Of a stretch of 64,000 nucleotides of DNA, positions 2,451 to 41,225 are shown piece by piece. The translations under genes and the position numbers were made by a program. Below the pieces are notes generated by a model, which had not been told where the DNA came from, made no database searches, and saw only the letters and a list, made by a program, of their open reading frames with translations. Within the stretch, counting starts at the first letter, position 1; every line of letters starts with the position of its first letter. The stretch is from assembly GCF_022045235.1 (NCBI RefSeq), contig NW_027266266.1:14570001-14634000 (forward strand). Direction: 5' to 3'. Source of the DNA: Haliotis cracherodii. Its lineage: Eukaryota.

Positions 2451-3420
2451 TTTCTCGTTTACAGATATCAAAATTTCTCAGTAAGGCACCATGGGCAGAC
2501 AAGCAGGAAACGCGGATTCCTCCGCCCCTACAACCCGAGAATTATCTATTCACTTAGATACTTTATTAGGGGCAGCTCTCTGTAAGTATAGTCAGGCTAC
2601 ATATACCAGGGCGTGGGATTTGTACAATGAATATTCCCGGGATTGTCTAGGTATTTCGCCGGTGCTACCGATAGCAACACCTAACTGGGCACTATTTTTG
2701 GCGTATATGTTTCATTTAGAGTTAGCACCTTCAACAATGATGACCTACATTTCAGCGATAGGTTACATTCATAACATTTGCGGTTTAGAGGACAATCAAA
2801 TTCTTTTCAAGTTCAGAAGTTGTTACATTGGGCTAAGTGTCTAAACTCTTCAGTAGACCAGCGTCTACCAATCACAGAGGACATACTGGGCAGGATGATT
2901 GACTCATTACCTGTCATGTTTTCCAACCCTTCAATCAGACTACTTTATGACACAATGTTTTTAGTCGCCTTTCACAGATTTTTTCGGATTGGTGAACTGA
3001 CGGTGCGTAGTTCGGATGACGAAGCGGCCTTGCAGGTGCAGGACGTTTCACTCTCCAGCTCCGAGGCCTATCTTAACATATCGACGTATAAACACAACAG
3101 CGGTAAAGCTAGCAAGATCGTCACACTAGACAAGTTAGACAGTAAACTATGTCCAGTTGCTGCGCTCAAACGTTACCTATGACAAAGGTCTCTCTTCCCA
3201 GGCCCTCCGTTTTGTGACTGAGGCTTTAAACCGGTAACAAGATCCTCCTTTAACAAAGCACTCAGAGTTGTATTTAACTTCTAAAGGTTAGATTCTACTA
3301 GATACAAAGGACACAGTGTCCGTAAAGGTACAGCATGCTCGGCAGCAAAGAAAGGCTGGTCTGACGCAAAGGGGCCGGTGGAATTCAGATGCATCTAAAG
3401 CATACATTCGTGTTCAGCTG
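2451..3420 (+). pseudogene. DIRS/Ngaro retrotransposon remnant: RNase H C-terminus + tyrosine recombinase
   Basis: LSRLQISKFL..APWAD, then N-terminal YR helices, RLPIT, FFRIGEL, CPVAAL, YKGHSVRKG and GRWNSDA..AYIR. Contains frameshifts and stops. Confidence 0.85.
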
Positions 3421-3663: not shown

Positions 3664-5326
3664 GTGAGTGAGTGAGTGAGTTTTGATTTTACATCGCATC
3701 GGCAATATTGCAGCCATATCGCGATGAGAACAAGTTTATTATTATAAAAATACCTGTCGACAAAGGACAGTAAAACAGTAAGGTAATTATCACAGTGTAG
3801 ACATAAAACTTACCTGAGCAATATTAAAACAAAGAAGTCTTCAGTGTATTAGTTATTAGAAAGTAAAACCAGACTATAGACCACTGGTAACCAAAGCTAA
3901 ACCACCTAACTGGGGATCATGGGGACTTACAGTACTTTTGCTTCCTGCATGATTCCCAGCAGGATTTATGTCATCACTTTGGTCACGTGTGGTTGTATGA
4001 AATATTAACCAATATTAAAAATCAAAACACAATCAAGGAATTAAAACACTAGTTGATATTAATTACTTCAATATAGATGGAATTATGTGCCACAGTCAGG
4101 GGGACAATAATTTTACACTACTTTAACCCCCTGAGTGGCACCGCCTTCATACATTTCAGTTGACAAGAATATCCAACTATTCTAAAACAATTCAAAATTT
4201 ATCAAATAATAGTATTTCTTTTAAAAATCCGAGTATTAAATGAGCACTGGTATTATAAAAAAGATCCTTTAAAGACGTTGAATGATAATAATTGTCCCTT
4301 ATGAGAGAAAAATCAACACAGTCAAGCAAAACATGCTTGACTGTGATTCTCTCATCACAAGGGACACAAAATGGAGAATCCTCACCTTTTAAAAGATACT
4401 CGTGTGTACATCGACTGTGTCCAATACGACATCGTTGCAAAACAACTTCGTCATGTCTCGAATGGCAACCCAAGTAGGTATACCCTATTGTTGGTTTTAT
4501 AGCATAAAGTTTGTTTATACCTACTTGGGTGTTCCACTTCTTTTGCATTAGATCTTTGATGTAGGATCTAATTATTGGCTTGTAATCACTGTAAGGTAAA
4601 AGAAGTGGTGTTACTGATTTGTTGAGTGCTGCCTTTGCAGCAGTATCAGCCATAGTGTTACCAGCAATTCCAACATGACTGGGCAGCCAGCAAAATACGA
4701 TGTCGTATTGGGCAGTGGCGAGGGTATTATTCAATTCTAAAATATTAAGAATCAGCGGATGATCTGAAGAACAATTATGTATGGCCTGAAGGCATGACAA
4801 GGAATCAGAAAAGATGATGAACTGTTGAGATGATTGGTTTTGAATGTATTCCAATGCTATAAGAATAGCATTGGCCTCAGCTGTAAAAATAGAGCTAGTA
4901 CCAGGAATTCTCGAAGACACTCTTTTAGATCCAATGACAGTGGCACTTGAAACTTTGCCACCATCCTTTGAACCATCGGTAAAAATAGATCGATGAGAAT
5001 CATATTTGGACCTTAATTGGGCATATTCTTGTTGATATACCAATGGGTTGGTGCCAGATTTCTTTAGGGTAGTTAGAGTGAGGTCTACCTCTGGTTTAAC
5101 TAGTTGCCAAGGAGGTGTAGACAGTAGCCGGGAAGGTGAGATAATAGAAAGATCAATATTAGCTGCTGTAATATGTGGCTGAATTCTGAACCCCAGAGGA
5201 GGAACAAGTTTTGGTTTGGAGTGAAATAATTTGGCATACATGGGATTAAACACACACTCATATGCTGGATTCGAAGGGTTTGAGTACAATTTAGTCACAT
5301 ATTGTAACGAAAGTTTGATTCGACGT
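3664..5326 (-). mobile_element. 5'-truncated RNase H-bearing LINE (I/Nimb/Ingi group)
   Basis: 11-bp TSD TTATGCCAAGA (3653-3663, 5327-5337). Open ORF2 C-terminus to 4192 with RNase H (FTDGSK, TAEA, FSDS, WLPSHVGIAGN..AD) and CxxC...H...C knuckle. ~530-bp 3' UTR ending in (CACT)n. Confidence 0.9.
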
Positions 5327-6499
5327 TTATGCCAAGACAGGGAGTGTGGTGAATTGCATGGGCAGACACTATGCTTCATGGTTGGGCGAGTTTGTTCAAT
5401 TAAAGTCTGTCATTAACTACATTTTGAGTAGCTACATGTAAATATTTACACGTCCCAACTATGGGTCTTTATGAATTACAGAGTAGAGTTGTGTGTTGTA
5501 TGGTTGCATTTTATACCTCTCTTATAATAAGTGTTAAGACAGGGGTGTGGTGTCTCGCATGAGCAGACACAATGCCTCAGGGTCAGGCAATTTGCTCAGT
5601 GAGTTTCATTATTTAATTCTAATAATTATTAATGTGAATAATTTCTTGTTCCATCAAGGAATCTTTTACAATTTCCATTTCGTGCGGGCTATCTCAAGTA
5701 TTGGTCCGCACCAATAATTAACTACAGCTGTTTTAGATTACATTGTTTACGAAATGTAGGCCTATATAGTACGTCATGATACAAACTATTTTATGATAAG
5801 CTAGATAAGAGATACTGCCACCAGGATTTACTTTTGCAGGCAACAGATGATACCGAAGACGAATCCCCAGGTGGAAGTGGAGAGACTTGGGCGAACCGGT
5901 CAATAAATGACACTTTCTATAGACCTGGAACTCTGTGCTATGTTTGCGTGTTTGTATCAAAGATACAAAATCAATGCAGATCGAGTTAATGGAACATTTT
6001 CCTGGAATCCGGAAACATTCTTGATCAAAGTTGCAGGACTCTTCGCGGGCCTTGTAAGGCAGTGAACAATAAAGTTTCACAAATATTCCATACGTAATTA
6101 AATAGCTTGCATATATCAGGGTGTTAGGGGAGAGGAAGCTGCTTTACATTTTATTGATACGTTACTAAAACTCGTTACGAGACAGTCATCAGGTGGGGGT
6201 ATAGTGTTCCACTATTGTGGTGTCGATTCCCCCACCTTTGTGGCTTATTCATACAATTTCGGATTGGCGAATTGTAACGCTTAGGCGTTTATATATACCT
6301 TGTAATAAATTTCATTGTCTGTAATTTTTGCCACAAATGAACTGGACGTTCTCGGGTCTAAGGGTTTTTGAGTATAAACATAATTATTTCTTGACTTTAA
6401 TCACTTGTTGGTTTTATATTTGGGAACGATCTAATACTATATCAGTAAATATTTATTTAATTAACTTTGAATGTAGGGGTTATTGAGATAACATCCCCA

Positions 6500-9567: not shown

Positions 9568-12051
9568 CAGGCTCGCTGACATGGTTGATGCATGTCATCC
9601 TATCCCAAGACCCGTTAATGTTCCGGGGTAGAATAGGGGTGTAGGGAGGTCACGGTACTGTGCGAGACATTACGTTGAGACAAACAACGTCTCGCGGCAA
9701 TAGCGACAGCAGTATTACGTCGGACAGGGCCCGGCTAATCATATGCGGAACACTCTGGTGTAGCTTCGAAAAAAAACATGACATTGTCACAGGCATTAAA
9801 ACACTCGAGTTAGGTGGCATGAATATTAAGTGTTGGCTTCTCAAAGCAGTTACAGTGTTGTCAAGACGTCCTATGATCGATGTCAAACTGGCCCCTACCC
9901 ATTCATAAATATTGAGGTAAGCTTTCACTCTTCTCACGCTTCTGATAGGCTGGTATAATTGTCAGTGTTGATTAGTCAATACTGATCGGTTAATCATCAC
10001 ACGTACAGTGATGATGGCGTTAAAAGCAGTCGTGCTGTGACTTGTTTGATTGAATTTGTTGTTATTTATTGTCAAAAAAGAAAGACGACATTTGGAATTG
10101 CAGTATATTCCCAATTAAGCATCATGCAATGTTATTGCAAATTTCCATTCATCTATTCTGAGCCTTTTTCAAAAATTAAATTTCAGCTCTGACAAGGATT
10201 TGTTTGTTTTTGTGTTGTTTAACGCCGTACTCGGCAATATCCAGCTATATGACGGCGGTCTGTAAATGATCGAGTCTGGACCAGACAATCCAGTGATTGA
10301 TATCATGAACATCGATCCACGCAATTGGGATCGATGACATGCATCAACCAAGTCAGCGAGCCTGACCACCCGATCCCGTTAGTCGCCTTTTACGACAAGC
10401 ATAGTCGCCTTTTAGTTGAAGATACAATGTACATGCTTAATTTATTTATTATATCTTGATGTAGGCATTGTAAGAAATTGACTGTAATTGTTGGTATTTT
10501 AGAAGTATATGTTATATGTTCTCATAAGAGTTATCTATCTTTTGCAGTTGGACCAGCTTTCCATGTTTGAGGGGAGAAAGCATCTCAGACTGTAACTGAT
10601 CTTCAGATTTCTTTGAATATTTTGTCGTCAAGCTATATACATTACCTATGAAAGAACAGCTCTTGTGTATGTATACAGTTGTAAACATATTAAAGTACTG
10701 GTACTGGTTCTGTAAATGATTTCTGTGACAATCATAATACACCATGTACACTGGACACTTGCTGGAATAGGACCTTCTTGTCATCAACATGGTGTTGCAG
10801 AATATTCTGGGACTCGCATATAAAGTCCAGTGTGAATTTAGATACTGACACTAGTGACAGTACATACTGTTGGAAATATTCCAATTCACACTGGCACAGT
10901 AATTTGTTCAGGCCTGGCTTTTCGGAATATTTGCCAAGAATGTTTAATATTTTCAGAGTAATCATGACCTGGTGTTAAAATGTGTGGATATGCCATACAA
11001 TGTCATTAATATTTATGGTATCAGCCATGATACAGAATTGATATTGAATATAATATCATAACAAAGTAATGTATGATAATAGTTTTTCAGTTTAAGGGTC
11101 CAAATCTTCCTAGAAAATACAGCAGATGCTCACCAATAAAAATTAAACATAACAAATGGATTAGCAGTTGTTGCTTTAGAAATGGTTGGTTGGTTATTTA
11201 ACGCCGTACTCAGCAATATTCCAGCTATATGACGGCGGTCTGAAAATAATCGAGTCTGCACCAAACAACCCAGTGATTAATATCATGAGCATCGATCCAC
11301 GCAATTGGGAACGATGACATGCATCAACCAAGTCAGCGAGCTTTAGGAAATTAATTCCTTGTTGAAATATCAACATGTCTTGATTTTGCATCGGCTGTAG
11401 AAGGGTTCAGGGGCGGTCGGGTAGCCTAGTGGTTAAAGCGTTCGCTCGTCACGCCGAAGACCCGGGTTCGATTCCCAACATGGGTACAATGTGTGAAGCC
11501 CATTTCTGGTGTCCCCTGCCGTGATATTGCTGGAATATTGCTAAAAGCGGCGTAAAATAATACTCACTCACTAGAAGGGTTCAGCATGCAAAATACACTG
11601 ATTTATTTGACAATAGCCAAAAAACATTATTCTTGACCAGTAATCTTAGCACAGATTGGTCCTTATGGATACTGGAAAATGTTAAATGTCAGTCACCCCA
11701 TTTGTTTAACTTGACTTTATTGGAAAAAATATTTGAAACACAAAAAATAAATGAAAAACAGGTATAATTGTTTCTGTCTCTGCATCATATGAATGTTGTT
11801 GTACCAAAGTTTGTTCATCAGTGTACACTGAGTGATAAGTTGAATGTAGAAATGTTTTGGTTGGTTGGTTTGTTGTTAAACGCCGCACTCAGCAATATTC
11901 CAGCTATATGACGGCGGTCTGCAAATAATCGAGTCTGGACCAGACAATCCAGTGATTAATATCATGAGCATCAATGCACGCAATAAGCCATTTCATCGAT
12001 TACGTCACAGTTTATGTGCACATACGCGTCACGTGATACACAATAATATTT

Positions 12052-12080
12052 CGAGGGACAAACATTGCAGTTTTTCGCGC
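12052..12080 (+). promoter_or_regulatory. Left subterminal inverted repeat (17 bp) plus E2F-like site of the ISL2EU element
   Basis: CGAGGGACAAACATTGC (12052-12068) is the exact reverse complement of 20893-20909. TTTTCGCGC lies at 12072-12080, about 50 bp upstream of the exonuclease ATG. Confidence 0.6.
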
Positions 12081-12127
12081 GCCTCTATTTGACAGTTGTT
12101 TTGCCGTTTACCCACATCAGTATTAGC

Positions 12128-15100
12128 ATGGCTTCTACCTCGCCTTTGTTTAATGTTTCCCTGCTGCCCGAAGATGTCCCTGGAGCTCAGTTTATTTATC
12201 CAGACGTCGATAGACATTCAGTTGTTCAGCTGAAACGGTGGTTGGAGTGCCGAGGCCTGTCGATGACAGGAACGAAGACCGAACTCGTCGAAAGGTAAGT
12301 CGTCTTATTTATTGGATTTCGTTAAAAATAGTATATGTCAGTTATGAGAATCTATGAAATATACATCTTTGTTAAAGGTATCGTGCCGTGATTGTTATTA
12401 CAATGGCATTAAGGTGCTCTGATGATTAACCCGATGAGCATATAATTTACGAGACAGACGTCATATCAAAATCCAAACCGGAAGTGATTTCCGTAATATT
12501 TGTTTATGCTAATAACGGATAATATTGAAATACATTTTTGTGTTTCAACTCCATAAATGTATGTGGGAATAATAGATTAAATCTGTCGTGCTCTGTCGTA
12601 TTCGTTATCAGAACGACATTTGCCTGGATGAGAGAATTCGGGCACTAAACGTTCGTCTGAAAAAGGGCAATAACTGTTTTCACCATTCTAATCTAACAGC
12701 TTGGGCTATGATACGGTATTTCCTCTATTATTTGTATATATTCATATGATGACCAAAACCTGGTCTGGCAGCCACAATACTATATGTACCTGTGCCAATT
12801 ATTCTATTTACACATGCAAACGTTGTTGTTATTACTATTATTTTCCAGATTATTTAAGGCATAAATAATTCCACACAATTTCCACGTAAAAATAGAATCG
12901 AATTACCAAACACATTTATTGTCATTTTCATCTCTATGTAGTGTTTTTCTTCACACACTTGGGCTAATATGAACAGAAGTATACAATTAACTTAGTTATT
13001 AATATGTATTATTATTACTTCAGTATATAACACCATTGCTTCAGGTCACGAGTAAGAGCCTTTCGGCATTACTATACTCTGCAAAAAAATTGATCTTATT
13101 ATCATGATTACCCCATAACAATGATTAAAGTGAGTGGACTAATATTACTAGTAATAATATAGATGGAAAGTAATCATGCAATCATTTACTAGTAAGCTCA
13201 GTGGTTGGAAACTGAATTCATCTACTCATTGATCAATATCTGAAATTGTAACATAACTGATGTTTACCCATTGTTTTCCCACAGATGTCAAGAGTGTATC
13301 AGAGCTCAGCAGGACACAGACATTTCCATTTCTATTGATAGTGGGAAATGGTACCAAATAAAGGTTCAAGATGTTTTGGCATCTCTTAACAGGTAACTAT
13401 GAGGTTTCAATTCCAGATTTTATCTTTGACCAAATGCAAAGATTGTGTAAGAATGGGTTGAAATATTATTGATGCATTTCCATTTCTGGATTGAAATGGC
13501 ATTGAATTCTGTGAACTTTTGTCAAATGGATTTAATATTGTGAACAACATTTGTAACGGAACATCATTTAAAAAGTACCCAAAAATAAAATGTAAGGGAA
13601 TTTTAATTACTGTTCACAGCATATTTTATTCTGAGAAAATTATATTAATCACTTAAATAATTGAATTAATCAACTCAAAAAAGATTTTTTTACAGGAATC
13701 AGAAAATATTTTTCCATCAGGTTGAAAAAAAAATGTTCGGAATATTCTAATTTTCAAAAGCTTCATGTCTTATGGGTCTTCAATATCCTATGGGTCTTCT
13801 GTTATAAAGTCCCAGGACCCCACACCCCACCCCCAAATTAAATCAAAATAATTGGTCCCTTAAGAAAGATAATACTTGCATCACATATATATGATATTAC
13901 AATGTCACATAGCTCGGTTTTAAGGAAGTTGATTTAACTTGCACCAGGTGCATGTTGACATGAAAACGCAGTTGCACTAAACAAAATCAGTTAGCCCTGG
14001 TCCAATATATATATTAAAGTTGAAACAGGCTGGTCTGCTGCCTGTGTCTTGTTTATTTTTGGATTATTGCTGTGAAACGTGATAGGAACATTTGCACACA
14101 ATCTAGAAGTACCTACAATGTGACAATGTCAAGCCCACGAAATCATAACAAATTACACACAACACAGATTAGTTATGTAGTATGGTAAATAAACTGTACA
14201 GGTATTGAATGTGATCCAAGATTGATGTGTGGATACACAAGGGTTAGACTTATAGACAAACAAATTTGGATATATTTTTTTACATGCATTTAGTGCATTT
14301 TGACATCAATATTAGGTTGCATGTTACAATAATATGTTGCACTGGTGCATGAATTATATAGCCAAATAGTTACCTGTGTCATGATTGTGTATTGCACTAT
14401 TTTCTCTTTGTATTACAGTTCAAGTCTGTGTTCGGCTGTGAGGCAACCTCCCACACCACCTATCACTGGATGGAAGGCCTTCCCTTCTGGCAACATCCCA
14501 CCAACCTTCTCATATGGTGATATATACCAGTATATTATTGCATCAGCCAGACTACAGCCTCTACCACAAGTCACTCCTATCAATGACGGTGATGATGATG
14601 ATGATCAGGACAACACCTTCAGCACTGCAAAGCCAATGAAGAAGGGACGAGCTTTTTTTAAGAGTGGCCACATACAAAATATTCAAACATGTTCTAAAAA
14701 TGAGTATTATTATCTTAAATGTGAATGTCTTCCATCATACAGACTAGGTATGATGTACCATGTACATGTTACTCTTGATAATTTTGCTGTCATCCAGGAT
14801 GCATCATGTGATTGTGTAGGTTCAGCCACTGGACGTTGTAGCCACATTACAGGATTGTTGTTTGTATTAGAGGATTATACTGTCAACTTTGGCTATACAG
14901 CACCCTCATGTACTTCTTTCTCTTGTTCCTGGAATAAACCCCGAAACAAAACTAGAAACCCACAACCTGCCCACACTTTGCAGTACAGCAAAAAGAGAGC
15001 TCCAAACCGTGTTATTGATCATGACCCATGTCCTGTTGCAGATCAGTCTCACAGAGCTGACAGTAGTTTTGCAACTGCTTTCATTTCTTCTGCACTAGCC

Positions 15101-15958
15101 TTGGATACAAATACTTCATGGCAGAGTATCCTAGAAATTACTTATGATGATTATGAATTGTCTAATGACTTGAAGTTACATCTCATGGATAAATGTGATG
15201 TTTTCATTGAAAATGTGAAAGAAAGTATTTCAGAGTATGGGGTTGGCCCTTGTGAAGTACCTGGTACTGTGGGTCAAGCAATTTCTGATCAGTGGCATAA
15301 TGCCAGGTGGTACAGAGTGACAGCATCTATTTGTAAAGACTGTTCTATGGTATCCACAGATCGAGGTAGATATCGCTTGTTATCATCACATGTATGGGGT
15401 ATTGATTGTTTTAATACAGTTGACATGAGGTATGGATCACATAATGAAAAAAGAGCCTTTGAAGACTATTCATTAAAATATGTAGAAACATTTACCTGCC
15501 TTGCAAGTGGTTTCTGGATAAATTCAAAGTATCCTGAACTAGGATGTAGCCCTGATGGCATCTTACAGTCTCTCAGTACAGATGTGGCTGATGGTGTTTT
15601 AGAAATTAAGTGCCCATCAGTACTTGAAAACATTAATCCAACTGAGGCAAAAGAAAAACTCACAAAGAAGCAATACTATTCATTTTGCAGCACTTTCGAA
15701 AATGGCAGACTGAAATTGAAAAGGAATCATAAATATTATTTCCAATGTCAAATGCAAATGGCCATCTGTGAAAAATATTTTTGTGACTTTGTAATATGGT
15801 CGCCTGAGGGTATGTCAGTAGAAAGAATACCCTTCAATAAATTATTTTGGGAACAGACATACCGCCTCTTGAAAATATTTTACAAAAATATTCTAGTTCC
15901 TGAGATATTTGAAATGAGAGTGCCAAGAAAGCTACTTCCCTTTGATCTGTCTAAGTAA
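12128..15958 (+). CDS. SAP + SWIM zinc finger + YqaJ/lambda-type PD-(D/E)xK exonuclease, ~604 aa, 3 exons (12128-12294, 13285-13392, 14419-15958)
   Basis: Exon 1 is SAP-like (VVQLKRWLECRGLSMTGTKTELVER) and ends AG|GTAAGT. Exon 2 (ccacag|ATGT...AACAG|gtaact) and exon 3 (ttacag|TTCA) join in phase 2 without stops. SWIM CDC-x6-CSH. Nuclease motifs WHNARWYRVTAS, MRYGSHNE, GCSPDG, LEIKCP, YYFQCQMQM. Confidence 0.88.
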
Positions 15959-17979
15959 GCATAACAAACATGTAACATGAGTGAATGTCCATAAAAAAAC
16001 AAGACACAGAAGCTAATGGTCAGTGTGTTATATTTATTCACTTCCAACATTACTTTGATCATAGAACTGAATCACATGATGTATGATTCAGCTTTTTTTG
16101 AGTACAGTGTATCCTTGTGAGGTTGTCATGATTATTAGTACAATATACTTCATGTGTAAACTTGACATTATACTAAGTGAGCTCCATATCGTACCACACT
16201 TATGGTGAATATTTTTCTTGTGCTGCATTCATGAAGAAAGTGAAACACCTTTGCTCCCAGTTAGTATCGTGAGGGCTAGAACTTGTTCTCGTTATTCAAG
16301 TTAGTAAACATTTCAACATTTTTTCACTTCTAACATTGTATATGCAATGTGAGAATATATGCAATGTGAGAATGATGAACGTTAATAACTAGTATGCATG
16401 GTGTACAGCTTTAGCAAAGCAACTAAGTGTCCAGATAATGTTATTCAAGTTATGTTAACAACCATGATAACAATAATGTGCAGTACTGTCATTTGTCATT
16501 ATTTTTATACTTCACGGACTAAGTATTTCACAAATGTGGATACAAGTTAACTTTGATTAACACAGCATGAAGAGATTTTGTCGCATACCTACTTATTGAT
16601 GCAATACATGTAGTGTCATAAATCGTACGTAAGTAACGAAGAAGATTCAAAATTGCATGTGGTACCTTCAGAATCAGGAAGGAGAAAAGGACACATTTGA
16701 GTTTAAATACATAATTGGTAATAGAAACAATCATATCATGAAAACAAAACCAGTAATGACTTCCTGAAACATTTGTTATTGTTTTCAAGGAACAAGAGGT
16801 ACTAAGTTGACAATCAGAACATAATTGTCATTGTTTAGAGTTTAACAAACAATTATGGCGGTGACAAAATGGTTGGGCTGAAAGGCATAAAATGTTTTGC
16901 ATATCTACAGTGGTAATGTTGTTAATATTTTTCATTATCACTATTTTCAAAGTAATAGTTCCATTGTTGGAATATTATTTTATCATAAACTAGATCAGTG
17001 GAGACATGCAGATACTGTTACAATTGAAACAATGGTTATGAGTGTGTAGTTTTTTTTATATAACCATGAATCATACTTCTCGCTGAGAGATACCTCCGTA
17101 ATGTTTACCCTTTTCTAGTTGTAGTCTTGACATAGTCTTGACATGTCAATTATTCATGCTGTACAAAAGTGTGCATACCTCCTATACGGAAACTGGGTCA
17201 ATGTTTCCGGCCTGTTCCCATGACAGACATATCAATTTGTACAACAATACCATGTTCAAATGATCATTCCAATACATACTGCAGTTGTTGGGAAAAATAC
17301 CTTGATAAACAGTGAAATAATTGTAATACCTTGTTTTCTAATAACAGTTATGACGATACATCTCACCCTCAGGGACATGTAATAACACAGGTGAAGTACT
17401 ACAGCCAACAATGCTGTTAAATATTAAAGTGGTTCAAAGCTCATATGATGATGGCTTCATGTCCTTGAAGAAAGTTTAGCATGATTCCAAAAACGATTTT
17501 CTGGGATAATATGTATGAACATTATGACACAGAACAGATCACAATTGTGAATGATTCAAACATCTATCTTCACAAAAATAAAACTGATCAACTAATTAGT
17601 AGCTATTTGATAAGGACGCAGTGAAAACTGCAACAGACATGAGTCTAAAATTGTTCACCAGCGCCAGTCGTGGACATATACATGAGGTGTCAATAAAAAT
17701 TTTACGAGCTATATTACTCTTCGTTATTATTTCTTGCTGCAGGTAGTCACAAGTCATGATTGAACACCGATATATGGCATCGCAAATGGAAACTGGCGAT
17801 AGATGCTGAGCAATGACTTGGTTCATGATGTACATGTTTTAGTGCGCTTTTTATTGTATAAAGAAGTATTTATGAGATATTGAAAAATAATCAGCTGATA
17901 ACGACAACTACTCGGGCTAGAATTATCGTACCTCCAATCATATGTAATATACATTCAATCATGGTAATGGGCTAATGCC

Positions 17980-20835
17980 CTATTTAACAAGTGGTGGCTG
18001 ATAGTTGGAAAGCATTCCTATAACAAATACTATCTGGGACGCTAAGTGTTTCATTGAAAGAGGAATAACTGTGTTTAATATACGATACTCCCTCAACCTT
18101 CCCACTGATCTCTCCACATGTATTCTTGTTCTAGCAATAGATCGAGTCAAGATATCTTCTTGAGGAGTCAGCTTGTCCCTTTTGCCTAGAAATGGAGGAA
18201 TATTCAAGTGTGCTCTACGGCTCATGAGGAGATCTTTGATATTGAAGCCTCTATCGGCTAAGATCAAATCACCTGGGTTAATTTTTTCAAGAAAGCCTGA
18301 TTTCCTGATAATATCTCTGTCTGATATGCCACCTTCATATGCATCAGACAAAAATGTAACAGCACCAGTTGGAGAAATACCAAGTAAAACTTTCAAGGTG
18401 TTGTGAGTTTTGTACTGAGAGTACATGTTGCCTTGCTCACCATAATCACTTGGTCGCTCAGAAAACACTTCGAAACAATCAACAATAACTCTGATGTTTT
18501 TGAAGCTTTTAAACACAGATGGCAATGTTTTCCTGATAAGATGTCTAGAAGGAAAGATGTGATCTTTCAAAGTAATAAATTTCATGTACAGAAACTGAAT
18601 CCAAGTGGTAATGATACAGGAAACAGAACCGACACTGATGTTATATCTATAGGATAAATCTTTTGTTGGAAAGTTTCTCCTTAATCTGACAAGTGTCAAA
18701 ACAAGCTGGTCTTTGATTGATAAAACCCTGCACTTGCCAGGTTTACTGGAACTTATCTTATTTCCACGCCAGTAACAAATGTCATTTACACTGTCACCAA
18801 GGGAAGCAAAAAGATGATTAAAATGAACAGTTTTCATGCCAGTAGAGTACTTGAATTTCTTCTTATTAGATACCAAATTATCAAATAGTAAATCACAGCT
18901 TTTGTTGTCAAGATCCCTGCTTATTTCACAATATGAATCAGGGACTTGTGCGGTCATCTTTTCATAAATTTTAGATACCAGAATGCTGGAACACACAAAC
19001 TCAGTCTGGTTGGACTCATGCTTCGTTGTCGGCATTGCTTGGCAGGCAGCATCACTGGACCTGAGCTCAGTCAAGGTAGCCTCTTCTGTGTCAGCACCAG
19101 TAGCACAGACATTTTGTTCCTGTTGACATAAAAATTAACTAATGATACATAATGTTTGCTCATTAACATCTAAGGCATGGTTAGGAAATTGTTGTATCTT
19201 AGTGGCAATGTCATGGTTGAAGTAAGTTCCTGGTGCCTGAGTGAGTATGGCTTTACACCGCTTTGAGAAATACTCCAGCAATATCACGACAGGGGACACA
19301 AAAAATGGGCTTCACACATTGTGCTCGTGTGGGGAATTGAAACCATTCTTTGGCATGGCGAGTGAACACTTTAACCACTAGGCTACCCCACCGCCCCACC
19401 TGTTGCCTTGAGGTCATACTTGTAAAATATATTTTTTCAACAATACCATAATACCACCTACTACAATGATTGCATCAGCTGCTATTAATAAGATAAACAA
19501 ATGGTGAACAAACAACGTGCTTAAATGCTTAATGCATCAATGAAAACAGTGTTATCAATTTCAATGAAATTGAAAAGGATACGGAATAACTTTCAAATTA
19601 CAACTGCTTATTATCTAGCCATGGTAAAATGACATTAATGAGTCTTCTAGTTGAACCTTTATTCCAAAAGGCACACCTAAAATGTTCATGTGTGACTGTG
19701 GCAGACAAGAAAACAAAAACAGGTCTAACCCTTTAAGGTTAGGTGTAAGGTGACATTTTCATAAACAAGTTATCTGCTGAAGCTAACACTGACTTGCAAC
19801 TAGGTCTATATACAAAGTAAATATTCCTTTAGGATAATATTATTAATGGTTTACATTCCAAAATTGCATACCATAATTTTTTTTACTTAAACAAAATATG
19901 GATCTAATATTTACCATTGTTTACATGGTTAAATATGATTGCAGAGCCCATTTACATCTGATTACAGGCTTAAATTAATTTTTTTTACAAATGTAATACA
20001 TTTATGGCAATATAAAAATTGGTCCATACCAATTCGGTATTGACTGTTTCCTGCCACTCCAGGTGCTTTCTAGAGGTGTATGGGTGGTCAGCTGCACACA
20101 CTGCAAGTAAAGATAGGCCATCACCTGCTGTAGAAGTGGGCTCCAACCTGGATACCTTACATGGAAGGGGACATCTCTCCACAGGGCTCTTTCTTTTCTT
20201 TGAAAATTTCACCACCTTGAAAAAAAATAATATATGGACTGCACAAATCTGCAACTATGTTTGGAACATAGGCCTAGAATCTACTTATTGCTCACATGGT
20301 TGCTTTAATCAATTTTCCATGACATTTGAACCCAAATTAATGCTTGTCATAATTCCAAATTAAATAAATCTGAATCAGTTGTTAAATCTGAAAACTGTTC
20401 ACCAAATTGACAAAATGTCGTATGACATATCCAGTAAACACTTTGAACATCGAACATTAATTTGACCTTCTAGGCCTAGTCTACTTATGGTGTATCGACA
20501 TAGATCTAGATGTATGTGTCTGACGTTATAATGACAAAAATACACAAAATCATAACACGTCCCTGATCAAAAGTATATGTTGCCGGGATAGGATCGGGAT
20601 GTTCAAGTGAAGGACCATTCCCGCCGATAAAGTGCTTGGAACATATGTAGGTGTACTTGTTGACCTTGTCCGTCGTAAAGCCCTCTCGACAACAAGCGTG
20701 AACCCACCTTGCACACTTCTCAGGCTGCTTGTGAAACTTAGGAAACAAAATAAAATGGATCCCTGCCATGTCAGGCCTATCCGTATAGCGGTTGTCACTT
20801 CGGCAGATCCCATACGCACAGTGTTTAGCTGGCAT
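17980..20835 (-). CDS. THAP + HTH + DDE (DDE_Tnp_4-like) transposase, ~532 aa, 3 exons (20835-20563, 20215-20030, 19119-17980)
   Basis: THAP C2CH finger (CAYGIC...FPK...W...ICSKHF). HTH region (QLVLTLVRLRRNFPTKDLSYRYNIS). Catalytic IVDCFE / LADRGF / IHVER. Phase-0 joins keep the frame. The first donor reads CAG|GGACGT (non-canonical), so the end of exon 1 is uncertain. Confidence 0.85.
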
Positions 20836-20880
20836 CGTGTTAAAATATCCGAAACCGCGCTACAATTCTAACAAGCGGAA

Positions 20881-20948
20881 GAGGGACAAATGGCAATGTT
20901 TGTCCCTCGTTTTTCGCGCATGCGCGAACCTAAAATAGAGCGGAAGTA
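20881..20948 (-). promoter_or_regulatory. Right subterminal repeat and putative transposase promoter
   Basis: GAGGGACAAA/TTTGTCCCTC inverted pair (20881-20908). Perfect 16-bp palindrome TTCGCGCATGCGCGAA (20913-20928, NRF1/E2F-like). ETS-like CGGAAGT at 20941-20947. Confidence 0.55.
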
Positions 20949-21132
20949 TCTAAAATTCTATTTTTAGTAGTTTGGCCTTGTTGATGAAATGGCTTATTGG
21001 GATCGATGACATGCATCAACCAAGTCAGCGAGCCTGACCACCCGATCCCGTTAGTCGCCTTTTACGGTAGACTAGGTCTTCAGCAGCATATGATTGCCGT
21101 TAAAGGCGACTTAGCTTGTCGTAAGAGGTTAA

Positions 21133-22056
21133 CCCTTTGGCCCCATAAATCAGGCAGCTACTGTCCAAGTCCCTCACACGACTGACCGCTAAATCGGGCG
21201 CCTTCAACTTCCTTTCTCGTGTGTAATCTCGTTCTAAAAATAGAAACGAGATCTGGACGTGATAATACGTCTATTCATTTTATTTTCCGCGCGAACATCG
21301 AGAGTACATGTAGGTAACGTGTTTTCGCGACAGGTAAATTTTCTTGTTTGAATCGATAAATTCCTTGCGTAATGGCGGCCAACTACGATTCGGATAGCGA
21401 TCAGATGTCTAATGACGACCTTTTTGGGAATGATAATGTTTTTGATATGATTAATTTACACGAGGTGGAAAGGGAATTTCGCGATCTTTTGGGGGATTCG
21501 GACGACGACGAAGATTTTGATGGTTTTGACCAGGTGTACTCCCCTTTGAACTTTCAAGAATGGGAAAGGTAGAGGGACTACTAAGGTGGAGACATGAGGA
21601 GACTCGGCCCAAGAATATTGACACGGTGAGTGAAGATAGTCGTATTACAATGATTCTTTGTTTGAAAAGATTATCAGGGCAGCGAATGACAATGCAGCCT
21701 ACAAGAGAACGAACGATCCCAACAACAACAGAGGTGAGTGGTATGACGTATCTCTTGTTGAAATCAAGGCTTTATATGGCATTTTGCTGTACATGGATAT
21801 CGTCAAACTTGACAGGGATCAAATGTATTGGCATTCTGGCATTAAATATCCTTTGTTGAAATATCCAGTCACTGACATTATGTCCAGAGATAGATTCACT
21901 CAGGTAAAAAGGTACCTGCAATTCAGTACTGATATCCTAATGCTAATGACAAACTGCACAAGGTACGCTACATGCTTGATCATCTCAGGTCTTCTTTTCA
22001 GGAACACTACAGTCTCCAACAGCAAGTGTCAGTGGACGAGGCAATGATTCCCTTCA
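21133..22056 (+). mobile_element. piggyBac 5' fragment (copy A)
   Basis: TTAA|CCCTTTGGCCCC terminus. Acidic N-terminus from ATG 21372. IMSRDRF and VSVDEAMIPF motifs. Frameshifted and truncated. Confidence 0.88.
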
Positions 22057-23987
22057 AGCATAGCTTTTTACGGCAAGCATGGGTTGCTGAAGACCTATTC
22101 TACCCCGGAATCTTCACAGGTCAGAAATATTTTGGACTTCTGGCAATTTTTTTTTTGGATCGTTTAAGCCTTACAACCAGAATTTTTTTTAAAAACACAA
22201 CTGTTCCTCACAGTTAATCTTTCCCATGCTATCAATCACAGTGTTGTAACAATTATATATATATATATATATATAATGTAGGACATGTCATGGTGATCGC
22301 CTCCATAATTCAGGTTATTTGTCTTGCATTTTCTGACTTGAAGTTGCTGTATGCTGCTTCATCTTTTGGTTGCTGTACAGCAAAAAATCACTCCCGCATA
22401 ACCAGACCCGTGAAGATTCCGGGGCAGAATAAGGTCTTCAGCAACCCATGCTTACCGTAAAAAGCGACTAACGGGATCGGGTGGTCAGGCCATCTGACTT
22501 GATTGATGCATGTAATCGGTCCCAATTGCGTGGACCGATGCTCATGATATTAATCACTGGATTGTCTGGTCCAGATTCGATTATTTACAGACCGCCGTCA
22601 TATAGAGCTGGAATATTGCTGAGTGCGGCGTAAAACAACCAACCAACCAAACCAACCATGGTTTTGCATACACAGCTGGTCATGCAGTGATATTGATCTA
22701 TATAATTAGATGCATCAGTATTCTTAGAGTGCCAAGTAATAGTAGCAGGAAATACTTCCATGGATTGAAGTAGGAGATTCAAAACAGTCCCTATATCTCA
22801 ATCCTGTTGCTACAGACCTCAGTTAGCTGTCCGGATTAGTTTCCTGTTTCCATTTACAGCTGGCATGGGCACATTCCTCTCTTTGCTGATCTGATGCAAC
22901 CCTGCACAGGAACATATTACCTAGGTAGGTGTTTAGTAAAACGTAACATACTCTCAGTAGGATGTTTGTTTGTTAAACGCCGCACTCAGCAATATTCCAG
23001 TTATATGACGACGGTCTGTAAATAATTGAGTATGGACCTGACAATCCAGTGATTGATCTCATGAGCATCGCTCCACGCAATTGGGATCGATGACATGCAT
23101 CAACCAAGTCAGCGAGCCTGACCACACGATCCCGTTAGCTCTTTCATGCCTGGCTGCCCCAGAGTTAAATATGTCCCTTGAAACACTGCTGTCCCTGACA
23201 AAAACCTGTACACTGACCTCCCTGGCAGTATTATTGAAAAATCACACTGTCAGTTTTAATGCCCTTTTTTCTTCCAGAAACTTGCTTTTAATATATACTT
23301 ATCATATCCTTTGTTGTTATTGTCTCTAACCTTTGTTATTTTCTTATTACTGGTGATGACTAAAACACTGAAAAAATGATAGCAGACAATGAATTTGGGT
23401 TCAAATTGTATTCAGAATCACAAAAATAAATCACAGATACAACGCGGTGGACGGCACAGGTCATCCCAGGTGTTACAGGTAAATCCTCTTCATGCGCATC
23501 TGTTAACAAATTTACAACACTTGGTACTGTTTTCTACACTGATCTCACGTATTACTTATGATACACTTAGCGCCTCTTAGGTAAACTCGTTAACTAATAT
23601 AAGAGACCCGTGAAGATCCCGGGGTAGAATAGGTCTACAGCAATCCATACCTGCCGTAAAAGGCGACTAACGGAATCGGGTAGTCAGGCTCACTGAACTG
23701 GTTGATACATGTCATCGATCCCAATTTGCATGGATCGATGATCATGATGTCAATCACTGGATTGTCTGGTCCAGACAAAACGTAATAAATAATTAAAAGT
23801 ATCACTAAAGTGTAAACTAGGTGTAAAAGGTAATGTAATAAATAATAATACAATATATATATATATATATATATATATTTTGACAAACATGAAAAGTGGA
23901 AATAAATATTTTCACAATTATTAAAAGTGGAAATAAATATATTTACATTATTTACAATGTTTGTGGCAAAGGACTGGGTTGAAATAA

Positions 23988-26002
23988 TCAGCACCAATAC
24001 TGAACCTTATTAGTGTGGTATTTTTGGAAACAATTCTCCTTTAATGAACAGCAAAGTGGAACGTCACACTTGGAGCACTTCATAGACGTCTTTGACTCCT
24101 TGCATTTGTAAAAGGCGACTAACGGGATCGGGTGGTCAGGCTCGCTGACTTGGTTGATGCATCGATGCTCATGATATTAATCAATGGATTGTCTGGTCCA
24201 GACTCGATTATTCACAAACCGCCGTCATATAGCTGGAATATTGCTGAGTGCGGCGTCTTTGTACGGCATGCCTGGATGGGTTGTCTGAAACACTTGATGT
24301 TTTTCAGCAGAAACGCGACACGCACAGTCACTACACTACGTACTGCTGTAACAGGCCAGTGGTTGTTGCAGTCCAGACGCTGTTCCTCGTAGTCACCATG
24401 TCGCTGTGAAGTGTTCCTGTTGGTGATGTTGCAGATGGGCCAGGTCAAGTCTGAAGGACAAGAGATGTCTCTTGCGGCTTCCCTGGGGGTTATGGTCGAT
24501 GATTGTACCTTCAAGAAGAAATGCATTATCAATGGCAATCTCTCTTTGCTTGATCTCAACACGCGTGTACCACTTCATAGATTTTTTACTTTTGTTCACA
24601 CGCATGTTCTGATCAAGCTTATCTACACCCCCATGTACTTCCCATACTCTACAACCGCTGGTGTTACTGCAAGTGCCTCCCGAGTTCCATCCTTCTTCCT
24701 CCGGGGGAGGGAATGCTGTAGATAGACCAGCCTGTTGGCCTTCCACATAGTAACGACGAAGTCTCCACAGACAACCCAGTCGTTGGATCCACGGTGGAGG
24801 CGAGTAGCATCTCTTCCTGTTGGTAGCTGTGCCGTCGGGTAGCCTTTCCTGTTGATCCTGTACGTCCCCTTCCACAAAAGATAATCAGCAAGTGTAGGAC
24901 TTGTATAGAAATTATCTGTAAAAATGATGTGACCTTGGCCAAGAATTTCCTTTCAAAGCCCAAGCTGTCGATCGACTACTGTTCCAATACTTCCCTGCAT
25001 AAACTTCAAAGTTGGAACAGTAGCCGGTGTCAGGACCCACAACAAACTTTACCTGCTGTACTGTTTAACACTAAGCCTGCCATTGAAGGGAATCATTGCC
25101 TCGTCCAGTGACACTTGCTGTTGGAGACTGTAGTGTTCCTGAAAAGAAGACCTGAGATGATCAAGCATGTTGCGTACCTTGTGCAGTTTGTCATTAGCAT
25201 TAGCATATCAATACTGAATTGCAGGTACCTTTTTACCTGAATGAATCTATCTCTGGACATAATGTCAAGGACTGGAAATTTCAACAAAGGATTCTTAATG
25301 CCAGAATGCCAATACATTTGATCCCTGTCAAGTTTGACGATATCCACGTACACCAAAATGCCATATAAAGCCTTGATTTCAACAAGAGATACGTCATACC
25401 ACTCACCTTTGTTGTTGTTGGGATCGTTCGTTCTCTTGAAGGCTGCATTGTCATTCGCTGCCCTGATAATCTTTTCAAACAAAGAATCATTGTAATACGA
25501 CTATCTTCACTCACCGTGTCAATATTCTTGGGCCGAGTCTCCTCATGTCTCCACCTTTGTAGTCCCTCTACCTTTCCCATTCTTGAAAGTTCAATGGGGA
25601 GTACACCTCGTCAAAATCATCAAAATCTTCGTCGTCGTCCAAATCCCCCAAAAGATCGCGAAATTCCCTTTCCCCTTCGCGTAAATTAATCATATCAAAA
25701 ATATTATCATTCCCAAAAGGTCGTCATCAGACATCTGATCGCTATCCGAATCGTAGTTGGCCGCCATTACGCAAGGAATTTATCGATTCAAACAAGAAAA
25801 TTTACCTGTCGCGAAAACACGTTACCTACATGTACTCTCGATGTTCTCGAAATAGAATGAATAGACGTATTATCACGTCCAGATCTCGTTTCTATTTTTA
25901 GAACGAGATTACACACGAGAAAGGAAGTAGAAGGCGCCCGATTTAGCGGTCAGTCGTGTGAGGGACTTGGACAGTAGCTGCCTGAATTGTGGGGCCAAAG
26001 GG
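23988..26002 (-). mobile_element. piggyBac (PGBD4-like) pseudo-element (copy B)
   Basis: GGG|TTAA end at 26002, ATG 25767, DEAMIPF, FTDNFY, GVDKLDQ, cysteine-rich tail. Multiple indels. Confidence 0.88.
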
Positions 26003-29682: not shown

Positions 29683-30392
29683 TCAGCACCAATACTGGAC
29701 CTTAGTGTGGTACTCTTGGAAACAATTCTTCTTAGATGAACAGCAAAGTGGAACGTCACACTTGGAGCACTTCATAGACGTCTTTGACCTCTTGCATGGG
29801 TTGTCTTTGTACAAACCATGCTTGTCGTAAAAGGCGACTAACGGGATCGGGTGGTCAGGCTCGCTGACTTGGTTGATGCATGTCATCGATCCCAATTGCG
29901 TGGATCGATGCTCATGATGTCAATCACTGGATTGTCTGGTCCAGACTCGTTTATTTACAGACCGCCGTCATATAGCTATAATATTGCTAATTGCGGCGTT
30001 AAACAACATACCAAACAACCAAATCTCTGGTCTTTATACGGCACTCCGGTATGGGTTGTCTGAAACACTTGATGTTTTTCAGCACGAACGCGACACGCAC
30101 AGTCACTACTTACTGCTGCAACAGGCCAGTGGTTGTTGCAGTCCAGACGCTGTTCCTCGTGGTCACTGTGAAGTGTTCCTGATGGTGATGTTGCCGATGA
30201 GCTGATGGGCCAGGTCAAGTCTGAAGGACAGGAGATGTCTCTTGCGGCTTCCCTGGGGGTTGTGGTCGATGATCGTACCTTCAAGAAGAAATGCATTATA
30301 AATGGCAATCTCTCTTTGCTGTATCTCAACACGCGTGTACCACTTCATAGATTTTTTACTTTTGTTCACACCCATGTTCTGATCAAGCTTGT

Positions 30393-30440
<48 letters not shown>

Positions 30441-31926
30441 CATGTACTTCCCGTACTCTGCCAGCGCCGCTCTTAATGCAAGTTCCATCCTTCTTCCTCC
30501 TCTTTGTCGTCAGTCCTTCCTCCAGGGGAAATCCAGTAGATGGAAAGTTGACCGGCCTGTTGGCCTTCCACATCATAGCAACGAAGTCTCCCCGGGCAAA
30601 CCAGTCGATGGATCCACGGTGGAGGCGAGTAGCATCTCTTCCTGTTGGTAGCTGTGCCGTCGGGTAGCCTTTCCTGTTGATCCGAACAGTGCCGCACAGG
30701 TACATCCCCTTCGAAATAAGATAATCAGCAAGTGTAGAAGTTATCTGTAAAGATGATGTGACCTTTGCAAAGAATTTCCTTACAAAGGCTAACAACAACC
30801 TGTCCTGAAAGCCGAAGCTGTCGATTGACTACTGTTCCATTCTTCCCTGCATCAACTTCAAAGTTGGAACAGTAGCCGGTGACAGAATCGGCCAGGACCC
30901 ACCACACCTTCACACCAAACGTTACCGGCTGTACTGTTTAATACTAAGCCTGCCTCGTCCACTGACACTTGCTGATGGAGACTGTAGTGTTCCTGAAAAG
31001 AAGACTTGAGATGATCAAGACTGTAGCGTACCTTTTGCAGTTGTCATTAGCATTAGGATTATCAGTACTGAAATACAGGTACCTTTTTACCTGAGTGAAT
31101 CTATCTCTGGACATAATGTCAGGGACTGGAAATTTCAACAAAGGATATTTAATGCCAGAATGTCAATACATTTCATCTCTGTTAAGTTTGACGATATCCA
31201 TGTACAGCAAAATGTCATAAAAAGCCTTGATTTCAACAAGAGATAGGTCATACCACTCACCTTTGTTGTTGTTGGGATCGTTCGTTCTCTTGTAGGCTGC
31301 ATTGTCATTCGTTGCCCTGATAATCTTTTCAAACACAGAATCATTGTAATACGACTATCTTCACTCACCGTGTCAATATTCTTGGGCCGAGTCTCCTCTG
31401 CAAAAAAACCCATGTCTCCACCTTTGTAGTCCCTCTGCCACTCCCATTCTTGAAAGTTCAGAGGGGAGTACACCTCGTCAAAACCATCAAAATCATAGTC
31501 GTCGGAATCCCCCAAAAGATCGCGAAATTCCCTCTCCCCTTCGCGTAAATTAATCATATCAAAAACATTATCATTCCCGAAAAGGTCGTTATCAGACATC
31601 TGATCGCTATCCGAATAGCAGTTGGCCGCCATTACGCAAGGAATTTATCGATTCAAACAAGAAAATGTACCTGTCGCGAAAACACGTTATACCTACTCTC
31701 GAAGTTCGCGCGGAAAATAAAATGGAATGACGTATCATCACGTCTAGATCTCGTTTCTATTTTTAGAACGATATTACACACGGGAAAGGAAGTAGAATGC
31801 CGCCCGATTTAGCGGTCAGTCGTGTGAGGGACTTTGACAGTAGCTGCATGCCTGATTTATCGGGCAGCAGTGGACTGGGCTGTGATGTATGCTGCCCGAT
31901 AAAACGGGCAAGTCGGGGCCAAAGGG
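29683..31926 (-). mobile_element. piggyBac pseudo-element (copy C, intact subterminal palindrome)
   Basis: GGG|TTAA at 31926-30. TTATCGGGCAGCA...TGCTGCCCGATAA subterminal repeat. GHIIFTDNFYT, GTVRINRKG, CSKCDVPLC...CFQEYH. Confidence 0.88.
30394..30437. repeat. (CA)n microsatellite inside piggyBac copy C
   Basis: About 22 CA units. Further microsatellites at ~33219-33248 (CA), ~22254-22275 (TA) and ~23853-23878 (TA), plus a G-run at 52759-52790. Confidence 0.95.
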
Positions 31927-39260: not shown

Positions 39261-41225
39261 TCAGCACCAATACTGGACCTTAGTGTGGTACTCTTGGAAA
39301 CAATTTTTCTTAGATGAACAGCAAAGTGGAACGTCACACTTACAACACTTCATAGACGTCTTTGACCCCTTGCTTGGGTTGTCTTTGTACGTCACTCCTG
39401 GATGGGTTGTCTGAAACACTTGATGTTTTTCAGCACAAACGCGACACACACTGTCACTACATACTGCTGCAACAGGCCAGAGGTTGTTGCAGTCCAAACG
39501 CTGTTCCTCGTTGTCACCATGTCGCTGTCGCTGTGAAGTGTTCCTGTTGGTGATGTTGCCGATGAGTTGATGGGCGAGGTCAAGTCTGAAGGATAGGAGA
39601 TCTCTCTTGCGGCTTCCCTGGGGGTTGTGGTCGATGATCGTACCTTCAAGAACAAATGCATTATAAATGGCAATCTCTCTTAGCTTGATCTCAACATGCG
39701 TGTACCACTTCATAGATTTTTTACTTTTGTTCACAGGCGTGTTCTGATCACGAAGATTCCGGGGTCCGCCGTCATATAGCTGTAATATTGCTGAGTGCGG
39801 CGTTAAACATACTTCCCATACTCTGCCATCGCTACTGTTCCTCCCGAGTTCCGACCCGTGAAGATCCGGGTTAGAATAGGTCTTCAGCAACCCATGATTG
39901 CCGTAAATGGCAACTATGCTTGTCGGAAAAGGCGACTAACGGGATCGGGAGGTCAGGCTCGCTGAATTGGTTGATGCAGGTCCGCTGAATTGGTTGATGC
40001 AGGTCATCGATCCCAATGGCGTGGATGGATGATCATGATATCAATCACTGGATTGTCTGGTCCAGACTCGATGATTTTACAGACGGACGTCATATAGCTG
40101 TAATATTGCTGAGTGCGGCGTAAAACAACAAACCAACTAACCAACCAACCATCCATCCTTCTTCCTCCTCCCACCTCCCTCCAGGGGGAATCCTGTAGAT
40201 GGAAAGTAAACCGGCCTGTTGGCCTTCCCCATTGTAGCGACGAAGTCTCCACGGGCAACCCAGTCGATGGATCCACGGTGGAGGCGAGTAGCATCTCGTC
40301 CTGTTGGTAGCTGTGCAGTCGGGTAGCCTTTCCTGTTGATCCGAACAGTGCCGCTCAGTACAGTGCCGCACAGGTACGTCCCCCTCATCAAAAGATAATC
40401 AGCAAGTGTAGGACTTGTATAGAAATTATCTGTAAAGATGATGTGACCTTTGCCAAGAATTTCCTCACAAAGGCTAACAACAACCTGTCCTGAAAGCCCA
40501 ACCTGTCAATTAACTTCTGTTCCATACTTCCCTGCATAAACTTCAAAGTTGGAGCTGTAGCCGGTGACAGCATCGGCCAGGACCCACACCTTCACACCAA
40601 ACTTTACCGGCTGTACTGTTTAACACTAAGCCTGCCATTGAAGGGAATCATTGCCTCGTCCACTGACACTTGCTGTTGGAGACTGTAGTGTTCCTGAAAA
40701 GAAGACCTGAGATGATCAAGCATGAAGCGTATCTTGTGCAGTTTGTCATTAGCATTAGGATTATCAGTACTGAAATGCAGGTACCTTTTTACCCGAGTGA
40801 ATCTATCTCTGGACATAATGTCAGGGACTGGAAATTTCAACAAAGTATATTTAATGCCAGAATGCCAATGCATTTTATCCCAGTCAAATTGACGATATCC
40901 ATGTACAGCAAAATGCCATATAAAGCCTTGATTTCAACAAGGGATACGTCATACCACTCACCTTTGTTGTTGTTGGGATCGTTCGTTCTCTTGTAGGCTG
41001 CATTGTCATTCGTTGCCCTGATAATCTTTTCAAACACAGAATCATTATAATTCAGTTGAAAAAAATCTATAGCACGACTATCTTCACTCACCGTGTCAAT
41101 ATTCTTGGGCCCTGTCTCCTCTGTCCCCATCTTTGCAGTCCCTCTGCCACTCCCATTCTTGAAAGTTCAGATTGTAGTACACCTCGTCAAAACCATTAAA
41201 ATCTTCGTCGTCGTCCGAATCCCCA
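39261..41225 (-). pseudogene. piggyBac transposase pseudogene (copy D)
   Basis: MSRDRF...LHFSTD, SVDEAMIPFNGRLSVKQY, CRVC...CCKCDVPLC...CFQEYH. Contains SINE-B insertions. Confidence 0.88.

Follow-up and report, generated by a model that had tools for sequence, protein, structure and literature searches.

The ISL2EU (PHIS) DNA transposons are characterized in the text of Han et al. (2015) by insertion at A|AT|T, by a THAP-HTH-DDE and a YqaJ open reading frame (ORF), and by terminal inverted repeats (TIRs) of 6-259 bp that usually start with GG (PMC4482050). The same text counts 12 potentially active families, calls the function of the second ORF (ORF2) unknown, and describes two oyster elements, ISL2EU-3_CGig and ISL2EU-4_CGig, with a THAP+HTH_Tnp_4+DDE_Tnp_4 transposase of 534-537 aa and a YqaJ ORF of 477-536 aa. 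A 2022 paper was aware of no proof that ISL2EU elements are active (PMC9179366). Spy, the sister group, leaves no target duplication on insertion (PMC4122938) and is active and blunt-cutting with a single ORF (PMC11304231). The relevant sections of three further sources (PMC12730594, PMC3706591, PMC5718144) concern only classification and other accessory exonucleases. A literature search, with subscription papers and Repbase outside its scope, found no functional test of ISL2EU ORF2 and no SWIM or lambda-exonuclease description of it, and a Kolobok paper was the only one found that names both Haliotis and ISL2EU. The word "Haliotis" is absent from the supplements of Han et al. (2015), and the Haliotis family may already be catalogued in Repbase. 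Here, a 64-kb stretch of contig NW_027266266.1 of the black abalone Haliotis cracherodii (the window) was analyzed, in which an ISL2EU element of 9,011 bp lies at positions 11985-20995. Its second protein appears to be an active 5'-3' exonuclease, for which docking on the transposase is predicted; this predicted complex is the one new lead, the layout of the element being already in print.

The element ends in perfect 13-bp TIRs, and the 13-mer has just two matches within the window, both of which are the element ends. AT adjoins both ends in the context A|AT|T. The insertion interrupts a host short repeat of which three uninterrupted copies lie in the window as paralogous empty sites; because these carry one AT in A-AT-T, the target can be rebuilt to the base, in agreement with the perfect TIRs and AT target-site duplication (TSD) reported in an earlier note made from the letters of this DNA. 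With the AT in A|AT|T, a first ORF with THAP, HTH and DDE domains, a YqaJ second ORF, TIRs within the published range and an animal host, the element is assigned by its sequence to ISL2EU. The earlier note had made the same assignment, with YqaJ in place of the Harbinger Myb protein and no established role for it, and the account of Han et al. (PMC4482050) bears this out. The element adds a gastropod (Haliotis) case to an already described two-gene type. Its likeness to the ISL2EU elements covered in the published accounts (PMC4482050, PMC4122938) extends to the AT duplication in A|AT|T, two ORFs, the same Pfam sets, the transposase length and the short TIR. It differs in its gastropod host, in a GG splice donor in this copy, in TIRs that start with AAG rather than GG, and in its length of 9.0 kb compared with a published mean of ~4.8 kb, which is explained by four introns and a 2-kb spacer. 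Since seven related loci (L003, L020, L035, L055, L061, L071, and L079) begin with AG, non-GG ends appear to be common.

Neither neighboring group accommodates the element. The 3-bp TWA duplication and Myb/SANT ORF2 of PIF/Harbinger proper are replaced here by a 2-bp duplication, a nuclease, and a THAP domain on the transposase, although PIF/Harbinger, as described in the relevant part of PMC9179366, likewise has a second ORF besides that of a related DDE_Tnp_4 transposase; binding of the second protein to the transposase was shown there and is predicted here. Spy elements have a single ORF and insert at AAA|TTT without duplication, whereas two ORFs and the target AATT are found here. In sequence, however, AAG..CTT ends beside an AT duplication are equivalent to a blunt AA|TT insertion with ends one base longer (11983-11985 and 20995-20997), so that the two readings cannot be told apart by sequence; as its sister group Spy inserts bluntly, the ISL2EU "AT TSD" may reflect a convention and not a staggered cut.

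The exonuclease gene on the plus strand consists of three GT-AG exons that encode 604 aa without a stop, and the model is identical to RefSeq XP_071093087.1 (H. cracherodii). SAP and YqaJ domains match above the Pfam cut-off. A SWIM region is indicated by a CxC-x7-CxH motif (C222/C224/C232/H234) and by a predicted fold that matches ZSWIM8 (Z 10.0, rmsd 2.7, 100 residues); the Pfam SWIM model has no match in this copy but matches 9 of 53 alignment members. These results agree with the SAP-SWIM-YqaJ architecture proposed in the earlier note, and neither SAP nor SWIM is mentioned in the main text of Han et al. (2015) (PMC4482050). The transposase on the minus strand (532 aa) matches the Pfam THAP, HTH_Tnp_4 and DDE_Tnp_4 models above cut-off. 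As previously claimed, its DDE triad (D367, D442, and E489) is complete, as is the PD-(D/E)xK motif of its partner (D471, E487, and K489).

The nuclease residues are strongly conserved. E435, S469, D471, E487, K489, and Q534 are present in all aligned ORF2 homologues (52/52, 23-98% identity), W384, R388, T393, and S395 in all homologues that cover these sites (50/50), and in 35 transposase-paired metagenome loci each of the four catalytic residues is retained at every locus that covers it (34, 33, 34, and 34 loci). Five residues of ORF2 are recurrently private to this copy, none of them catalytic. The nearest solved relatives are LHK-Exo (E 7e-31; Z 17.4, rmsd 2.7, 178 residues) and lambda exonuclease (Z 16.2), and Cas4 chains are also among the fold matches (Z 10.8). 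R388 aligns with Arg-28 of lambda exonuclease, a residue reported to bind the 5'-phosphate (PMC11611040), and SXT-Exo as well as lambda Exo is reported to degrade 5'-phosphorylated ends in the 5' to 3' direction (PMC3118119). Both marks of the lambda type, the PD-(D/E)xK residues and the 5'-phosphate-binding Arg, are thus found in ORF2. Because the catalytic residues and the Arg-28 equivalent are conserved, the reading of ORF2 as an active 5'-3' exonuclease, which was also that of the earlier note, is supported; together with the lambda/LHK-Exo relatives, the same residues suggest that the label "DNA-binding protein" given to it in Han et al. (2015) says too little. ORF2 resembles lambda exonuclease, LHK-Exo and SXT-Exo (PDB 1avq, 3syy; described in PMC3118119 and PMC11611040) in fold (Z 16-17), catalytic motifs and the Arg-28 equivalent, but adds an N-terminal SAP domain, the SWIM region and a linker, and the element lacks an annealase partner. 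Processive 5'-3' activity as a ring trimer is a trait of the lambda-type exonucleases; ORF2 is known here from its sequence and predicted fold.

Among 80 related loci, 35 carry a convergent ISL2EU-type transposase, one carries it in tandem, none in divergent orientation, and 44 have none (many of them on short contigs). When the count is restricted to loci flanked by 4 kb or more on each side (22 loci), 13 are without an ISL2EU-type transposase. Three of these 13 (L022, L024, and L040) contain instead a PF20700 transposase upstream of, and on the same strand as, the YqaJ gene, and have no SWIM match. KolobokE, as described in PMC9587614, likewise has its nuclease downstream of an unrelated transposase on the same strand, and we infer that the PF20700 loci represent a second, KolobokE-like transposon lineage that uses the same nuclease. 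A SWIM score of at least 25.9 bits was obtained in 27/27 paired loci tested (picked from 35) compared with 1/16 unpaired loci (picked from 45).

Co-folding of the two exon-3 products gave a binding score of 0.77, with the best control at 0.00. The binding mark is reached by 51/78 solved complexes and 2/108 mismatches (39/65 and 2/126 for eukaryotes). Between runs, 56% or more of the contacts agree, with a partner pLDDT of at least 72. The predicted interface joins the linker that connects SWIM with YqaJ (aa 274-331) to the pre-HTH helices, the core and a C-terminal N-x-Q-x-P-L motif of the transposase. A sequence search of the PDB did not turn up a solved structure related to the transposase (best E 0.96), and a fold search returned generic DDE/integrase matches only (best Z 9.3, piggyBac); the docking model is therefore unlikely to be the memory of a similar complex. 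A profile of the linker scores above zero in 14/27 paired and 1/16 unpaired loci, and the identities of the transposase and exonuclease domains co-vary (rho 0.51, 0/5000 permutations, 23 pairs). Several results weigh against a docked nuclease that acts in repair: the co-variation is explicable by linkage alone; blind-picked neighboring genes reach the binding mark in 7/44 cases; conservation at the interface does not exceed that of the other residues in either the exonuclease (0.41 vs. 0.49, p 0.07) or the transposase (0.54 vs. 0.60, p 0.09); the linker profile reaches at least 14 bits in just 5/27 paired loci; and every step of the repair model set out below is deduced. Overall, the transposase and the exonuclease are predicted to bind each other, a contact that the model supports rather than shows, and besides the tethering to DNA by SAP and SWIM that the earlier note had suggested, the evidence points to tethering by protein contact with the transposase.

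The tentatively preferred explanation is that the 5'-3' exonuclease, while docked on the transposase, resects the broken donor ends and thereby favors copy-restoring recombination. The THAP and HTH domains of the transposase would bind the element ends, where a subterminal 17-bp motif present as an inverted pair is a candidate THAP binding site, and the DDE core alone would cut both strands, as in single-gene Spy. The docked nuclease would thereby be brought to the 5'-phosphorylated flank ends left by excision; the donor flanks are the proposed substrate because an enzyme that needs a 5'-phosphorylated end would find such ends there. End resection favors homologous repair, and resected flanks would favor homology-directed repair from the sister chromatid that still holds the element, so that excision would end in a net gain of copies. 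A broader generalization, possible but held with less conviction, is that ISL2EU elements are heteromeric transposase-exonuclease machines that use their own lambda-type resection enzyme to push the host to rebuild the element, in effect a programmed copy gain. If the donor-resection model holds, a transposon would be steering the repair choice of its host with its own enzyme. The predicted interface can be mutated and many near-identical open copies exist, which leaves the role of ORF2 open to a simple assay.

A somewhat unlikely alternative is that the transpososome has a second catalytic subunit in ORF2, comparable to TnsA of Tn7 or to Cas4 on Cas1, which cuts or trims the non-transferred 5' strand of the element or a 5' flap after transfer, and which would be needed for excision or clean insertion rather than for donor repair. 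The predicted docking on the transposase and the Cas4 chains among the fold matches agree with such a role, as does Tn7, which according to the relevant part of PMC9308760 employs TnsA for the non-transferred strand. Tn7 offers an analogy in working, its DDE transposase being accompanied at the element ends by a nuclease that is a distinct protein, but it is bacterial and built from unrelated proteins. The retained 5'-phosphate-binding Arg suits an enzyme that begins on an end already present, and Spy transposes with one protein (as described in PMC11304231), both of which speak against a second cutting subunit.

Less probable still is that ORF2 acts mainly as an adaptor equivalent to Myb, which binds, stabilizes or imports the transposase and adds DNA binding through SAP and SWIM, the nuclease being secondary or aimed elsewhere (e.g., at host nucleic acids). 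The Harbinger Myb-like protein is described as binding its transposase so that the two enter the nucleus together and bind the TIRs (PMC9179366), the interface predicted here does not involve the nuclease domain, and SWIM accompanies the paired loci in the proportions given above. The invariance of the catalytic residues in all 52 homologues and in all covered paired loci, and the presence of THAP and HTH domains on the transposase itself, disagree with this role. The remaining option, that the exonuclease resects target ends during insertion, had been offered in the earlier note and is hardly credible, as only the enzyme class speaks for it, every base of the target is retained around the 2-bp duplication, and DDE strand transfer leaves no free double-strand end in the target.

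Clustering at 90% identity collected 14 transposases (8 H. cracherodii and 6 H. rufescens entries) and 10 exonucleases (3 H. cracherodii and 7 H. rufescens); several of the entries have adjacent accession numbers. Thirteen full-length sister transposases from the two species are 97.0-99.8% identical, a more distant transposase is found in H. rubra (88%), and a multi-copy transposase/exonuclease pair is present in Ostrea edulis. Judged by these identities, the Haliotis ISL2EU family is young and recently amplified. Being near-identical, spliced and multi-copy, it makes the copy-gain reading directly testable. Read depth (~1.4x in X19, <1x in most X18 bins) was considered as a measure of copy number and rejected, the host share of the runs being unsettled. 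The description "young, nearly reconstitutable" in the earlier note suits the family, but this copy departs from it in its non-canonical splice donor and its private changes. As a type the element is not new, and as a reagent this copy is inferior to its sisters.

The exons of the transposase are free of stops and frameshifts in this copy, but its intron 1 is GG-AG, while the same junction (TFDQ|VVKF) is used by 13/13 sister proteins. The RefSeq model of the locus, XP_071093088.1 (534 aa), is identical to an alternative model built here that passes through a cryptic GT. This GT scores -5.4 on a heuristic matrix on which the remaining three donors reach 8.8, 5.0, and 1.3; reading through the intron leads to a stop at codon 110. 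Furthermore, S245 is private to this copy, the position being Y in 13/13 sisters and Y or F in 83/83 aligned homologues (85 rows, two of them gapped), and H46 (R in 12/13 sisters) and Y216 (D in 13/13) are also private. A contig from a run guessed to be RNA covers exon 1, carries the sister allele R46 and breaks at 20562, with a further 217 letters, as many as exon 2 and ~31 bases of exon 3 make up together, and in the exonuclease gene a similar contig breaks at 14415; both breaks fall at predicted exon borders when shared letters are allowed for. The RNA nature of the two runs (X12 and X13) is a guess, and both also cover introns, X13 almost continuously; the exon-spanning joints themselves are not among the matches listed (15 of 285). 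The breaks at exon borders are supportive of the predicted splicing but not proof. Window-private alleles appear in 0/6 X19 reads at 15661 and 0/8 at 18289, too few reads to call them absent.

The term "intact" used in the earlier note for two convergent three-exon ORFs thus holds for the exonuclease gene and the open transposase exons, and for the family, but not for this copy, the transposase of which is likely disabled by the lost splice donor. This copy is likely non-autonomous and would depend on a sister copy for its transposase, while its TIR ends and exonuclease gene look usable. Against a lost donor, the GG could be an assembly error; sister copies presumably have GT, although base 20561 of sister DNA is not among the differences listed (40 of 276). 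Full autonomy, by way of such an error or through use of the cryptic GT (two additional linker residues) with Ser245 tolerated, is considered unlikely. It would be compatible with the open exons, with the 534-aa product annotated by RefSeq and with the fact that assemblies do contain single-base errors, but the weak score of the cryptic donor, the break and R46 allele of the exon-1 contig, and the singularity of S245 among 83 homologues argue against it.

The features of the element are collected in table 1. An other-species contig (X13, record 15) matches the right end and stops matching exactly at 20998 (TIR + ATT), after which a different sequence follows; this fits an independent insertion into the same target context. 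A contig of another species runs 50 bases into the SINE-like repeat at 19238-19397, which may for this reason belong to the family rather than be a late insertion in this copy. The empty form of the site also shows in the reads of two DNA runs, 220 and 929 of which have joints that skip 9,013 bases (AT..TT); they stem from very high-copy paralogous host repeats and say nothing on polymorphism at this locus.

Table 1. Positions in the window of the ISL2EU element, its genes and the interrupted host repeat.
Feature	Position	Strand	Remark
Host short repeat, left half	11899..11984	+	ends in the left target duplication (AT, 11983-11984)
Intact host-repeat copies matched	10240-10402, 11220-11341, 22448-22605 (reverse)		paralogous empty sites
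Left TIR, 13 bp	11985..11997	+	starts AAG
Subterminal 17-bp motif	12052..12068	+	inverted copy 20893-20909; shared 9-mers
Exonuclease exon 1	12128..12294	+	start codon; SAP aa 31-56; identical to RefSeq model
Exonuclease exon 2	13285..13392	+	GT-AG
Exonuclease exon 3	14419..15958	+	SWIM 14807-14845; predicted docking linker 14963-15136 (aa 274-331)
YqaJ catalytic residues E435/D471/E487/K489	15446-15610	+	in exon 3
Region between convergent stop codons, 2.0 kb	15959..17979	.	
Transposase exon 3 (HTH_Tnp_4, DDE_Tnp_4)	17980..19119	-	D367 18478-18480, D442 18253-18255, E489 18112-18114, S245 18844-18846
SINE-like repeat in transposase intron 2	19238..19397	-	74-87% identity to seven other window stretches
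Transposase exon 2	20030..20215	-	basic KKRK stretch
Transposase intron 1, first two bases	20561..20562	-	GG not GT; weak cryptic GT 6 bases further in
Transposase exon 1	20563..20835	-	start codon, THAP; RNA-like contig breaks at 20562
Right TIR, 13 bp	20983..20995	-	
Right target duplication AT (20996-20997) and host repeat, right half	20996..21066	+	

The region between the convergent stop codons contains no third gene and no RNA family, as judged by two frames without a match in Pfam and by the lack of a match in Rfam. The nearest canonical poly-A hexamers lie at 17423-17692 on the plus strand and at 17850 and 16033 on the minus strand, and the 3' untranslated regions of the two genes could overlap and form double-stranded RNA. 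Within exonuclease intron 2, the depth at 13889-14215 is raised in 3/4 runs, probably by a fragment of another repeat.

A search for TIRs in 21 of the paired loci found convincing ends in ~8; AT was required by the script, so this is no independent test of the duplication. The apparently complete ISL2EU-type elements measure 3.4-7.4 kb, most of them with AT|AG ends, and lie at 7147-11645 in L003, 1537-5694 in L019, 1011-4398 in L020, 7586-11113 in L055, 6409-10658 in L061, 7408-10771 in L071, 3806-11193 in L079 and 7484-11150 in L035. The TIRs of L003 (~475 bp) exceed the published range.

The neighboring piggyBac-like, Harbinger-like and PF20700 remnants in the window have no frame above 224 aa, as expected from the decay of the surrounding DNA transposons that had been noted previously. 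Decayed copies of one piggyBac-like element lie at 21360-22047, 24212-25500, 29976-31644, and 39261-40505 (PF13843 match at 21640), and are themselves peppered with the host short repeat that the ISL2EU element interrupts. A PF20700 (Mutator/Kolobok-like) remnant on the plus strand at 61387-62936 adjoins an unassigned minus-strand frame of 197 aa. On the other side of the element, a fragment at 2485-3182 resembles, by eye and with no Pfam match, a tyrosine-recombinase retroelement, and the RNase H-bearing end of a non-LTR retrotransposon (PF00075) is located at 4192-5409.

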